A stretch of 64,000 nucleotides of DNA, from NCBI GenBank assembly GCA_963807885.1, contig CAWEDL010000003.1:343010-407009 (forward strand), read 5' to 3'. A program made the position numbers and the translations under genes. Positions 24,510 through 27,194 of this stretch are shown piece after piece. Position 1 is the first letter of the stretch, and the number at the start of each line of letters is the position of its first letter. The notes under the pieces were generated by a model. That model had not been told where the DNA came from and ran no database searches. It saw only the letters and a program-made list of their open reading frames with translations. Source of the stretch: an uncultured Solirubrobacterales bacterium. GTDB lineage: Bacteria > Actinomycetota > Thermoleophilia > Solirubrobacterales > 70-9.

Positions 24510-24935
24510 CTAGTTGCCCCGCTCGTCCCCGGCGGGCAGCAGGATCGCGGCGACCAGGGCCACTGCACCGGCGGTCAAGCCCGCGGTGGTGATGCTCAAT
24601 TTCAGCCGGTCCGAAGATCCCTCAGCCAGGACCCAGAGTGCGACAGCCTCGCTGAGCACGAGGGCGAGCAGGGTGGCAGCCGCGTAAGCGGCCCCCACGA
24701 CCCGCACCCGGACCGGGTCTCCGAACAGCAGGCCCAGCACCTTTGGCGGCTCCCGACCCGGCGAGAAGTAACGCAACTCGATCGCCAAGGCCAGGATCAC
24801 GATCGGAATGATCTGCGCGATCGCTTCGAAGTAGGCGATGTCGGCATGCCCCTGCACGAGCACCAGCGCGACCAGGAAGGCAATCGGGGGCAACCCGAAC
24901 GCGACCGATGCAACGGAGATCCCGAGCCACTTCAA
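24510..24935 (-). CDS. hypothetical membrane protein
   Basis: The hydrophobic ORF begins immediately downstream of tRNA-Pro. The track N-terminus (RWFESSRP) is a translated tRNA. The first possible start is TTG 24935; later TTG/GTG starts are also possible. Confidence 0.45.
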   Translation of the reverse strand: MKWLGISVASVAFGLPPIAFLVALVLVQGHADIAYFEAIAQIIPIVILALAIELRYFSPGREPPKVLGLLFGDPVRVRVVGAAYAAATLLALVLSEAVALWVLAEGSSDRLKLSITTAGLTAGAVALVAAILLPAGDERGN

Positions 24936-24936
24936 A

Positions 24937-25011
24937 TCGGGGCGGCTGGATTCGAACCAGCGGTCTCCTGCCCCCAAAGCAGGCGCGATAACCAGGCTTC
25001 GCTACGCCCCG
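24937..25011 (-). tRNA. tRNA-Pro(TGG): tRNA-Pro (anticodon TGG)
   Basis: Manual cloverleaf: acceptor CGGGGCG/CGCCCCG, anticodon stem CCTGC/GCAGG, loop TTTGGGG, T arm GCTGGTTCGAATCCAGC, discriminator A. Confidence 0.9.
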
Positions 25012-25670
25012 AGCTTGGTTGAGTCTAGCCACGTATCTCGCAAGCAATCCGTCCAAGCCTGCATCGCTTCGCGGAAGTAGGTGTCGTCGGCAGTAATTGC
25101 GAGCACACCGTGCTTGGATCGCCAAGTCCGCCCATTCAGACGGCCGCTGTTGGACTTACGCAAGAGTCGAATCTCCTCCGGGGAAACACCGAGCTGCTTG
25201 CCCCAGAAGCCCTGAACGTCAGCTGGCCTCTGGTCGGCGTGGCACTGAACCGAGTAAGTCAGGTAGCTGGCAGACAGGATTCGCATCCATCGAGCCGCCA
25301 ACTGCACCACCGCGGAATCTGAATTCGCGATGGACACCCTGTGGCGAGATCGACGATGGCCCTCGGTGATGAACAGGACTAGAAAATCCCGAAAGCTGGG
25401 AATCTCACTGAGATGAAGGTAAAACTGAAGAGCGTCTTCGTAAGCGGCCTCTCGTAGCGAGCGATACTTCGCTTGCATCGCCTTGGTGCCCTTGCGCCGA
25501 GCCGAGTCGGGCCATCCGTCGTTCGGCTTCCGTGGGATCTCCAGGTCGCGTACCCAGCCATAGACCGTCGTACGTGGAACGGCGAGTCGTTCGGCGAGCT
25601 CGTCGATCGTCAACTTCTTCTTGGTCCGAAGCTCCCTCGCCTTCTCCCTGATGTAGATCGGATAAGCCAT
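25002..25670 (-). CDS. low-GC orphan HTH-domain protein (C-terminal region weakly reminiscent of LAGLIDADG-like proteins)
   Basis: ATG 25670: MAYPIYIREKARELRTKKKLTIDELAERLAVPRTTVYGWVRDL (HTH). 222 aa with visibly lower GC than the flanks. The last 10 nt overlap the 5' end of tRNA-Pro. Confidence 0.6.
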   Translation of the reverse strand: MAYPIYIREKARELRTKKKLTIDELAERLAVPRTTVYGWVRDLEIPRKPNDGWPDSARRKGTKAMQAKYRSLREAAYEDALQFYLHLSEIPSFRDFLVLFITEGHRRSRHRVSIANSDSAVVQLAARWMRILSASYLTYSVQCHADQRPADVQGFWGKQLGVSPEEIRLLRKSNSGRLNGRTWRSKHGVLAITADDTYFREAMQAWTDCLRDTWLDSTKLGA

Positions 25671-25678
25671 CTCGCAGA

Positions 25679-25692
25679 CGAACGTATGTTCG
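25679..25692. promoter_or_regulatory. candidate LexA/SOS box CGAACGTATGTTCG
   Basis: Matches the Gram-positive/actinobacterial consensus CGAAC-RNRY-GTTYC (GAAC-N4-GTTC) at all but the last position. It lies 9-22 nt upstream of ATG 25670 and 42 nt upstream of the divergent DUF1015 gene. Confidence 0.5.
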
Positions 25693-25733
25693 CAACTGCA
25701 CCGGACAATCCGAATCGCTAGCGTGCCAGCCCG

Positions 25734-27194
25734 ATGGCCGACGTGCGCCCCATTTATGCGACCCACTACGACCTCGGCGAGGTCGGCTCTCTGCAGAAGG
25801 TGGCGGCGCCGCCCTATGACGTGATCGACACGGAGATGCGCACGAGGCTGCTCGAGCGCTCCCCCTACAACGCGGTGGCCATCGACCTGCCGAAACCCTA
25901 TGGCGAGACCGGGCCGCAGCAGACCGAAGACGACCCCTACGAGCGGGCGGCGCGGACGATGGACGAGTGGCGAGAGGCCGGCGCGCTCGTCGGCGACTCC
26001 GAGCCGGCGATCTGGGCGATGACCCAGGACTACACCGGGCCCGACGGGGCCGCCCGCACCCGCCACGGCATCCTCGCCCGGGTCCGCGTCGAGGACTTCT
26101 CCGCCGGACAGGTCCTGCCCCACGAGCGCACTCTGCCTGGCCCCAAGAAAGACCGGCTCGACCTCACCCACGCCACCCGCCACAACCTCTCACCGATCTT
26201 CTCGCTCAGCACCAAGGACGCCTGGCCACTGGTCGCTCCCGCGATCGAGTCCGAGCAGCCCTGGGGCGAAGCGACCGACGAAGGCGGCACCGTGACCAGG
26301 GTCTGGCGGGTCGGCGATCCGGCGATCCACGCCGCCGTCACCGAGCTGCTCGCCGACGCCCAACTCCTCATCGCCGACGGCCACCACCGCTACGAGACGG
26401 CGATCGCCTACCGCGACGAGGTCGGCGGCGAGGGCGATCACGAGTTCACCCTGATGGCGCTGACCGGGCTCGACGACCCCGGCCTCACCGTCTTCCCCAC
26501 CCACCGGCTGCTCTCCGGCCTGCGCGATGACCCCGAGCGCCAGCGTCGCCTCGGCGAGGGCCTGCGCGAACTCTTCGACGCCACCGAGGTGCCGATCGAG
26601 CAGCTCGACCCGCTCGGCGAGGAGGGAGTCGGCGTCTTCGGCCTCTTCGACTCCTTCCATAAGAAAGCGTTCCGCCTGCAGCTCAAGGACAGCGCTGTGG
26701 CCGCCCTCGACGAGCAGCTCGCCGGCAAGCCCGAGGCCTATCGCCGCCTCGATGCGGCGATCCTCGAGACCCTGGTGCTGACGGGAATCGCCGGCCTGAG
26801 CGAAGACGACATCCTCGCCAAGCGCGGCCTCGGCTACTCGAAGAGCGTCGAGGACTCCCTCGCCCTACTTGAGAACGGCACCTACGACGTCGCCTTCATC
26901 CTGCGCCCGATCCCCGTCGACCAGGTCAAGGCGATCTGCGAAAGCGACGAGAACATGCCGCCGAAGTCGACGTATTTCTTTCCAAAGGTGCTGACCGGGC
27001 TAGTGTTCAACCCGGTTTGCCGAAAAGATCTACACCAAGAAGGGCGACGACGGCTCAACGTCGCTCTGGTACGGGGGCCGCGTTCCCAAGCATCACGGCC
27101 GCACCGAGGCCTACGGCGCCCTCGACGAAGCCTGCTCGCAGTTGGGGGTTGCCCGGGCTCTCTGCGGTCCCGAGCAGGCCGAGCTGGCGGCTGA
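25734..27194 (+). CDS. DUF1015-family protein
   Basis: PIYATHYD...APPYDVID N-terminus and KSTYFFPKVLTGLVFNPV C-terminus are typical of DUF1015. Conserved sequence ends near 27018; the remaining ~58 codons read through the next gene in another frame. Confidence 0.8.
   Translation: MADVRPIYATHYDLGEVGSLQKVAAPPYDVIDTEMRTRLLERSPYNAVAIDLPKPYGETGPQQTEDDPYERAARTMDEWREAGALVGDSEPAIWAMTQDYTGPDGAARTRHGILARVRVEDFSAGQVLPHERTLPGPKKDRLDLTHATRHNLSPIFSLSTKDAWPLVAPAIESEQPWGEATDEGGTVTRVWRVGDPAIHAAVTELLADAQLLIADGHHRYETAIAYRDEVGGEGDHEFTLMALTGLDDPGLTVFPTHRLLSGLRDDPERQRRLGEGLRELFDATEVPIEQLDPLGEEGVGVFGLFDSFHKKAFRLQLKDSAVAALDEQLAGKPEAYRRLDAAILETLVLTGIAGLSEDDILAKRGLGYSKSVEDSLALLENGTYDVAFILRPIPVDQVKAICESDENMPPKSTYFFPKVLTGLVFNPVCRKDLHQEGRRRLNVALVRGPRSQASRPHRGLRRPRRSLLAVGGCPGSLRSRAGRAGG

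Follow-up and report, generated by a model that had tools for sequence, protein, structure and literature searches.

A candidate SOS-induced homing-type gene cassette beside tRNA-Pro(UGG) in a Solirubrobacterales bacterium

The SegB protein of phage T4 is a free-standing homing endonuclease whose gene lies inside a tRNA gene cluster (PMC2330249). A bacterial chromosomal locus that invites comparison with this arrangement is described here. The window, i.e. the whole stretch of DNA analyzed, comprises 64,000 nucleotides from an uncultured Solirubrobacterales bacterium (assembly GCA_963807885.1, contig CAWEDL010000003.1, positions 343,010–407,009). At about 25.0–25.7 kb of the window, an open reading frame for a 222 amino acid (aa) protein with a helix-turn-helix (HTH) motif is found together with a LexA (SOS) box, between a DUF1015 gene and the gene for tRNA-Pro(UGG). 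The gene and its box are an accessory cassette of roughly 700 bp at a fixed chromosomal site. We see about an even chance, judging from the sequence and its relatives, that this is an SOS-induced, free-standing endonuclease cassette of the homing type that uses the tRNA gene as its landmark.

The open reading frame (P0001) is on the minus strand at positions 25002–25670, with its ATG at 25670, and the protein begins with MAYPIY. An earlier note on this DNA, made from the letters alone, had described a 222-aa frame with an N-terminal HTH and a 10-nt overlap with tRNA-Pro; all of this is confirmed by the open reading frame call, Pfam HTH_17 and ARAGORN. The three-helix HTH DNA-binding domain is at aa positions 5–40 (25551–25658, minus strand) and is seen by Pfam HTH_17 and HTH_3, by TIGR01764 and in the structural model. 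HTH_17, which is of the MerR/excisionase type, matches aa positions 20–48 with 27.6 bits (cut-off 27), and the excisionase-type HTH TIGR01764 gives 26.4 bits (E = 6.8e-6), which is under its cut-off of 28.8. A long helix follows, and then an undescribed C-terminal domain at aa positions 88–215 (25026–25409, minus strand), which is LAGLIDADG-like at the sequence level and whose predicted fold is unmatched among solved structures.

The tRNA-Pro(UGG) gene is at positions 24936–25012 of the minus strand (ARAGORN). The open reading frame ends with CTC GGG GCG TAG, the TAG being at 25004–25002. The final C of CTC is the 5′ C of the mature tRNA (25011), so that positions 8–10 of the tRNA form the stop codon and the overlap is 10 nt; by the ARAGORN coordinates it is 11 nt. 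The -10 promoter box of the tRNA gene, TAGACT (25022–25027, minus strand), is within the last codons of the open reading frame. The other edge of the insertion site is formed by the divergent DUF1015 gene (25734–27017, plus strand; Pfam DUF1015, E = 7.5e-71). The interval is AT-richer than its surroundings, as had been remarked in the earlier note: the G+C fraction is 0.58–0.61 over 25.0–25.7 kb and 0.67–0.73 in both flanks, so that the gene is about 10 points lower. The gene has a G+C content of 58.9% overall and 70% at third codon positions (GC3), vs. 68.9% and 91% in DUF1015.

The LexA box, CGAACGTATGTTCG, is a palindromic operator at positions 25679–25692, 9 nt upstream of the ATG, and direct reading bears out the GAAC-N4-GTTC motif that had been reported there. 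A candidate -10 hexamer of the TANNNT type, TACGTT, is inside the box (25681–25686, minus strand), and a candidate -35 hexamer, TTGTCC, is 16 nt upstream of it (25703–25708, minus strand). Both were picked by eye from the sequence, and a strict sigma-70 consensus scan gives no promoter at these hexamers. A GTCCGAC-like element related to the candidate -35 recurs ahead of the box in paralogues. If the -10 hexamer is used, transcription would yield a leaderless or near-leaderless mRNA.

A single core site means little in this genome, since the assembly (1.68 Mb, 61% complete) contains 17 copies of the bare core GAAC-N4-GTTC and about 15 are expected. The extended form CGAAC-N4-GTTCG, in comparison, has 7 copies where about 1.7 are expected. 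One of them, TCGAACACTTGTTCG, precedes this genome's own lexA gene (C2:237183–237785) and is of the same motif type as CGAACGTATGTTCG. Perfect boxes are also found ahead of a DUF5131 (Gp37/Gp68) gene (CGAACATATGTTCG, C2:76133), of a radical-SAM gene and of a 241-aa open reading frame (C3:712669, L006; C1:237177, L003). From the excess of the extended motif and its copies before lexA and other genes, the LexA motif of this organism is read as the classical Gram-positive/actinobacterial type, and CGAACGTATGTTCG is a perfect example of it.

Some of the boxed loci have features of their own. The lexA box (C2:237839) is 118 nt from a tRNA-Leu(GAG) gene. The DUF5131 gene is followed by an open reading frame that is TcmP-like by eye only, and the pair (locus L004, about 1200–2040 and 81–1211) is apparently SOS-wired. 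The radical-SAM gene is SplB-like by eye, with Pfam giving Radical_SAM only. The 241-aa open reading frame has no Pfam match and by eye resembles the C-terminal portion of an ImuB/Y-family polymerase.

The gene had been called an orphan, which it is not: its homologues number at least 1,793 at E ≤ 1e-3. A relative is encoded in 278 species genomes, of which the best 80 were taken as orthologous loci. These are all from the Thermoleophilia (Solirubrobacterales, Thermoleophilaceae and Conexibacteraceae) and show 48%–80% aa identity. In 79 of the 80 loci tRNA-Pro(UGG) follows the gene on the same strand, at -23 to +41 nt from the stop codon in intact copies, and DUF1015 is found in 73, mostly as the divergent upstream neighbor. 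An exact GAAC-N4-GTTC box is present 13–28 nt before the start codon in 68 of the 80. The arms of the box are kept across orthologues and the 4-nt spacer varies (ATAC, ATAT, ATGT, GTAT and others); some gene callers translate the box as an N-terminal extension (..CEHMFD..). The box thus fits the operator of the organism's own lexA gene and is conserved family-wide, which makes the gene a credible member of the SOS regulon, with LexA binding predicted, and supports the proposal of a LexA operator in the earlier note.

The 3′ end of the gene is likewise a conserved arrangement. A TAGACT, TAGAAT or TAAACT box is found about 10–17 nt before the tRNA in every locus, whether or not the site is filled. 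In many orthologues the TAG of this -10 box is the stop codon of the open reading frame. In the subgroup to which the window belongs, the box is read as Leu-Asp-Ser and the frame continues to the TAG inside the tRNA. The conserved C-terminal W-L-D was considered as a pure by-product of the -10 box and rejected as having that sole cause: the same ending is present in paralogues that are not placed before a tRNA promoter, and in the Pro-type genes the same bases double as TAGACT.

The cassette is polymorphic. Using DUF1015 as an anchor, 60 other genomes of the same GTDB family were scanned and the 29 best loci were read. In 22 of these DUF1015 directly adjoins tRNA-Pro(UGG), mostly in divergent orientation, and the gene is missing; the gap between them is 28–198 nt (measured in 18 of the 22), and no LexA box is found in the gap of any of the 22. 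Three loci carry both box and gene, with the box decayed in one, another has a decayed copy of the gene, and the last three have no tRNA near DUF1015. With this genome included, the Pro-type cassette is present in four members of the family, decayed in one and absent in 22. As the box is missing from empty sites together with the gene, the two form one present-or-absent unit.

The insert lies exactly between a promoter-like segment of DUF1015 (..gctagcggtt..) and the -10 box of the tRNA gene, and each site has one copy, with none elsewhere in the same genome. The junctions show no evident terminal repeats or target duplications. Since DUF1015 keeps a promoter-like segment of its own outside the insert and empty sites have no box, DUF1015 is independent of the box, and the suggestion that the two divergent genes share the operator was not borne out in the cassette-free genomes inspected. 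In one locus with a Pro-type copy (L009, genome G119) the upstream neighbor of the cassette is an IS1595-like transposase fragment by eye rather than DUF1015, and the left arm of its LexA box is degraded (CACAC instead of CGAAC).

Decay of the gene occurs in several genomes. There is a pseudogene with stop codons (G017), a 32-aa remnant (G137) and a decayed copy (G236), and early stops are present in the orthologous loci L033, L034 and L074. The copy in the window is different: its open reading frame is intact and its ratio of nonsynonymous to synonymous substitutions (dN/dS) is 0.08–0.15 against orthologues at a synonymous divergence (dS) of 0.3–1.7, showing purifying selection. The earlier proposal of a remnant of a mobile or selfish element therefore stands only in part; presence or absence at a fixed site fits such an element, and the word remnant does not fit this gene. 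The low G+C content is no sign of recent arrival either. The gene is below DUF1015 in 75 of 76 loci (62.8% vs. 70.7%; GC3 78% vs. 92%), so that low G+C is a trait of the family, and a recent foreign acquisition was rejected on these grounds.

Weak hits in the search of the class are full-length paralogues with about 25% identity that have the core motifs in common, and these too are found beside tRNA genes, in 17 of 17 cases within about 260 nt. The Glu(UUC) paralogues are divergent from their tRNA and have the box in 8 of 9 cases; the Val(UAC) paralogues are also divergent and have the box; the Gly(UCC) genes are downstream of the tRNA and are without an exact box; and there is one further Pro(UGG) copy. 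A superfamily profile was then run over 301 genomes of the phylum, of which 44 matched, and 28 loci were fetched. All 28 have a tRNA gene within 100 nt, namely Lys(CUU), Asn(GUU), Gln(UUG), Val(UAC) or Met(CAU), and most of the genes are directly upstream of the tRNA in the same orientation. Thus all 45 paralogue copies inspected have a tRNA gene as neighbor (Glu, Gly, Val, Lys, Asn, Gln, Met or Pro), with the same partner throughout a subfamily. A restriction to tRNAs with U34 was rejected on the basis of the Lys(CUU), Asn(GUU) and Met(CAU) partners.

The LexA box precedes the Glu and Val paralogues and some of the Lys paralogues, being exact in four Lys-type loci (L195, L203, L209 and L210). 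In the Lys(CUU) loci an ATG inside the box (..GAACNCATGTTC..) is in frame with the open reading frame and is a candidate start codon; with translation beginning there, the operator would cover the start of a leaderless message. Members of the Gln(UUG) subfamily (L190, L199–L204; genomes of 7.5–9.9 Mb) have the HTH and the core after a longer in-frame N-terminal region, in open frames of 284–1026 aa, and show no exact LexA box within 250 nt. For that reason their regulation appears to differ, and perhaps their architecture as well.

The tRNA-Glu site shows the same kind of polymorphism as the tRNA-Pro site. In 10 genomes it is empty, with tRNA-Glu 142–210 nt from the flank, and in 7 genomes it is filled, with the tRNA 745–1210 nt from the flank and the gene present; the box is found in 6 of these 7. 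Three further loci (L215, L216 and L218) have neither the cassette nor an empty site. They carry a different insert of 480–680 nt, which in L218 includes a 151-aa open reading frame that is membrane-embedded by eye. The tRNA-Glu site seems to collect other small inserts too. The family as a whole is large, with 4,584 homologues of the Glu type alone, and the cluster representatives matched by the superfamily profile (clusters at 50% identity) number 7,781 at E ≤ 1e-3, of which 4,255 remain at E ≤ 1e-10. Family members are labeled “hypothetical”, “transposase-like” or “HTH regulator” in the sources, and a literature search found no description of the family.

The C-terminal domain has the motif L-F-I-T-E103-G104-x-[KR] ... 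V-S-I-A-N116-S117-D118. Residues R73, E103, G104, N116, D118, W156, G188 and W214 are invariant across the superfamily (28 sequences). Ser117 is not, as it is Ala in one paralogue. Two independent AlphaFold2 models, of the Pro-type and Glu-type proteins (mean pLDDT 88 and 91.6) have the same topology: a three-helix HTH (residues 5–17, 22–29 and 33–40 in the Pro-type model), a long helix, then helix, strand, helix, strand, helix, strand, a basic loop, a strand and a long helix.

The combined superfamily profile matches the second LAGLIDADG motif of I-DmoI, weakly, with E = 0.005 for the whole sequence and 0.04–0.06 for the domain. The alignment places L-Y-I-A-E-G-x-K ... N-S-D and the helix that follows on I-DmoI residues 113–145, so that E103 falls on Glu117, G104 on G118 and K/R106 on Lys120; we take Glu117 and Lys120 to be active-site residues of I-DmoI. 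The best fold matches in BFVD (E = 0.006–0.04, TM-scores below 0.25) include phage proteins annotated as endonuclease or LAGLIDADG, the LAGLIDADG-annotated ones at E = 0.015–0.02. These weak I-DmoI and BFVD signals are all that the profile and fold searches against known nucleases gave. Profiles of single subfamilies show no I-DmoI match. Neither the protein nor six paralogues have a Pfam LAGLIDADG match at E ≤ 1, and a search of the whole genome with PF14528 finds only an intein, elsewhere. The LAGLIDADG resemblance noticed earlier in the C-terminal region has therefore gained the weak matches just given, and the family membership that it might imply has gained no match in Pfam, in hhalign or among PDB folds. 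We think it somewhat more probable than not that the domain is LAGLIDADG-like, and take this as a lead and not as a statement of membership.

The history of the locus shows a mixture of patterns. The protein evolves faster than the neighboring DUF1015 product, e.g. 52% vs. 78% identity. Some closely related hosts have very different alleles (DUF1015 87%–89% identical, HTH protein 54%–60%), and in other, equally close hosts the HTH alleles are 73%–78% identical. At a coarse scale the trees of the gene and of DUF1015 are congruent, with several supported conflicts. In the approximately unbiased (AU) test, the HTH data reject the DUF1015-tree grouping of the window sequence (WIN) with L028, L031 and L096 (p = 5e-5), and the DUF1015 data reject the HTH sister pair L084 and L092 (p = 2e-6), these groups having been picked after the trees were seen. 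In the reciprocal direction there is no rejection (p = 0.27 and 0.13). With the AU results mixed and the groups chosen post hoc, horizontal spread is suggested at most.

A homing-type cassette is proposed for several reasons. It is a one-gene unit with its own putative LexA-controlled promoter, present or absent at a fixed site and occasionally decayed. The gene has a lower G+C content and a faster evolution than its neighbor and encodes an invariant acidic core, and its paralogous lineages are each found at a different tRNA. The following scheme is envisaged. A cassette of about 690 bp, made up of one gene and a promoter that is repressed by LexA and probably leaderless, would have been inserted between the DUF1015 promoter and the tRNA-Pro(UGG) promoter. 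Its product would combine an HTH DNA-binding domain with an undescribed LAGLIDADG-like domain of catalytic appearance. In undamaged cells LexA bound to the box would keep the gene off. During the SOS response the protein would be made at a time when RecA-mediated recombination is also up, and it may recognize and cut DNA at or next to tRNA-Pro in an incoming cassette-free copy. Recombinational repair from the cassette-bearing chromosome would then copy the cassette in, i.e. homing without an intron. The tRNA gene would serve as an invariant landmark, and the tight packing would run the open reading frame through the tRNA -10 box to a TAG inside the tRNA.

Several results weigh against this proposal. 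The C-terminal 130 residues have no match in the domain libraries, as Pfam, NCBIfam and PHROGs see the HTH only. With either model, no PDB structure reaches E ≤ 1e-3 in Foldseek and the top 50 include no LAGLIDADG entry, the best PDB matches being weak and OmpA-like or IspF-like; hhalign against the intein LAGLIDADG_3 alignment gives a probability of 0.7%. No relatives are found in the phage, plasmid and viral-contig collections INPHARED, PLSDB and IMG/VR. An immunity polymorphism was looked for in tRNA-Pro, and no position separates filled from empty alleles. The region upstream of recA has no box with one mismatch or fewer. The recA operator was accordingly dropped as a calibrator and lexA used instead, which leaves lexA and a few other genes to calibrate the regulon; of the two promoters named in the earlier note for a genome-wide scan, lexA has the matching operator and recA does not. 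Finally, the gene and DUF1015 trees agree coarsely and the AU tests are mixed, and the strong, long purifying selection with conserved synteny fits vertical inheritance with repeated loss equally well.

The main rival is favored by the strong purifying selection and the mostly congruent trees. The protein may belong to the host's SOS regulon and bind DNA without nuclease activity, as a domesticated LAGLIDADG-like and HTH factor comparable to WhiA, acting at or near the neighboring tRNA gene, inherited vertically and often lost; it might change transcription of the tRNA or protect a heavily transcribed site during DNA damage. We hold this to be unlikely. It would agree with a dN/dS of about 0.1 over a large divergence, with trees and AU tests that do not force transfer, with domain libraries that recognize only an HTH, and with fold searches that gave no solved nuclease, and bacterial regulators are often encoded beside their targets. 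It leaves unexplained, however, why at least eight paralogous subfamilies are each at a different tRNA gene in varying orientations, and why the gene is absent from most close relatives in which the tRNA and its promoter are unchanged. The persistently low G+C content and the occurrence of pseudogenes and remnants also speak against a host protein, and the invariant acidic/polar core (E103, N116 and D118) is of the kind that is lost in domesticated proteins of the WhiA type.

The remaining explanations are less likely than a host protein. A minimal mobile element with its own recombinase or transposase, comparable to IS607 with its MerR/Xis-type HTH and small catalytic domain, could target the flanks of tRNA genes. 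The order of an HTH and then a catalytic-looking domain, the sizes of protein (about 220 aa) and cassette (about 700 bp) and the strict association with a target site would suit such an element, and the predicted strand-helix-strand-helix-strand-loop-strand-long helix loosely recalls serine-recombinase cores. No Resolvase or transposase catalytic model in Pfam or NCBIfam matches, however, no solved recombinase is among the fold matches, and the candidate nucleophile Ser117 is Ala in one paralogue; a serine recombinase of the IS607 type was rejected on the missing model match and on Ser117. With single copies per site, none extra in a genome, and no evident terminal repeats or target duplications, a recombinase element is improbable. 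Most subfamilies are directly upstream of the tRNA in the same orientation, 20–94 nt away or overlapping, which makes co-transcription likely and raises the question of an SOS-induced factor that acts on RNA, i.e. one that binds, cleaves or modifies the neighboring tRNA or the precursor of it and shares a transcript with this substrate. SOS-induced toxins that cut tRNA are known in colicins D and E5. In the Glu and Val subfamilies, however, gene and tRNA are divergent, and the Gly genes are downstream, so that co-transcription is not general; moreover, the HTH is of the DNA-binding type, no RNase-like domain was found, and an enzyme acting in trans has no need to be located beside the gene for its substrate. 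An RNA-directed function appears slightly more improbable still. A leftover of a prophage or integrative element attached at tRNA-Pro, of which an excisionase- or regulator-type gene was kept by chance, is very improbable: the weak excisionase-type HTH match (TIGR01764), the tRNA adjacency and the lower G+C content are in its favor, but the cassette is on the 5′ side of the tRNA, in its promoter region, whereas integrases usually act at the 3′ end. Neither an integrase nor any other element gene is nearby, no relatives turned up in the phage collections, and the one-gene unit is intact in at least 80 species under purifying selection, by which this explanation is largely refuted.

Two observations concern the genes that border the site. 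The DUF1015 frame in the window extends to 25734–27194 (486 aa); orthologues are about 428 aa long and are followed by a separate PduO-type Cob_adeno_trans gene, and one relative has a 609-aa DUF1015 plus Cob_adeno_trans product. The overlong frame looks like a frameshift or an assembly indel near 27.0 kb, which would fit the many single-base indels noted earlier in 22.9–38.4 kb. On the other side, directly downstream of tRNA-Pro, a 155-aa hydrophobic open reading frame (24510–24977, minus strand) is kept at 77%–89% identity in the closest relatives only. As it is found in 4 of the 80 loci, in one of them as a 26-aa fragment, the region beyond the tRNA is also variable.

The homing-type reading can be extended to the whole superfamily, in a form that we consider unlikely. 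There would be a phylum-wide guild of damage-induced nucleases in the Actinomycetota, with a fold unseen in solved structures, each subfamily homing beside one tRNA gene (Pro, Glu, Val, Gly, Lys, Asn, Gln or Met). The cassettes would be woven into tRNA expression, with the open reading frame carrying the -10 box of the tRNA and, as in this window, taking its stop codon from within the tRNA. Processing of read-through transcripts by RNase P would remove the stop codon and lead to disposal by way of transfer-messenger RNA (tmRNA), a built-in limiter on a dangerous enzyme. Such removal of the stop codon in the window's own subgroup is speculative.

If the cassette is a homing-type unit, a large unannotated family of at least 4,255 clusters (at the 50% identity and E ≤ 1e-10 given above) would consist of chromosomal selfish genes that have tRNA genes as landmarks and whose expression is restricted by LexA to the SOS response. 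A new catalytic domain would be added to the repertoire of homing endonucleases, possibly as a source of DNA cutters with long sites, and intron-less homing would be common in bacterial chromosomes, beyond phages. A LexA-boxed gene that recurs in comparative studies of the SOS regulon of soil Actinobacteria would also be accounted for. Even if the protein serves the host, a DNA-binding protein that is induced by damage and acts at tRNA genes would connect the SOS response with tRNA loci in a new way.

Among known systems, the LAGLIDADG enzymes (I-DmoI, I-CreI; Pfam LAGLIDADG_1, _2 and _3) are comparable in having a hydrophobic helix that ends in an invariant acidic residue and Gly (..L-[FY]-I-[AT]-E-G-x-[KR]), with a strand and helix following it in the segment aligned to I-DmoI, and in selfish behavior, here a proposed one, at conserved RNA genes. 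The predicted fold differs: LAGLIDADG enzymes have an alpha-beta-beta-alpha-beta-beta-alpha order with a four-stranded DNA-binding saddle of two long hairpins, whereas helices between short strands are predicted here. The protein has no significant match to the Pfam or intein LAGLIDADG_3 profiles, has an N-terminal HTH and is encoded outside any intron or intein. WhiA, a Gram-positive transcription factor with degenerate LAGLIDADG domains and an HTH, likewise joins an HTH to a scaffold of the LAGLIDADG type in Actinobacteria and is an example of such a protein working as a regulator instead of a nuclease. WhiA is a conserved core gene with a C-terminal HTH and has lost the catalytic acids; the gene described here is an accessory gene next to a tRNA, its HTH is N-terminal and its acidic residue is invariant.

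Selfish genes under LexA control, such as the colicin operons and SOS-induced prophages like GIL01 (PMC4551915), have in common with the cassette a LexA operator over the promoter (here a candidate promoter), by which a potentially harmful or selfish function would be limited to times of DNA damage. Those are multi-gene systems of plasmids and phages, whereas the cassette has one gene, is chromosomal and is bound to a tRNA gene. The nearest precedent is SegB of T4 (PMC2330249). In both cases a stand-alone gene, without intron or intein, is located among or against tRNA genes, its presence varies among relatives, and its spread is proposed to occur by cutting of the cassette-free allele and copying during repair. 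SegB is a GIY-YIG enzyme of a phage for which cutting and homing have been demonstrated; the protein described here has an HTH and an undescribed LAGLIDADG-like domain, is chromosomal in Actinomycetota with no phage relatives found, and is a proposed endonuclease. The LexA operator is a feature of this cassette.

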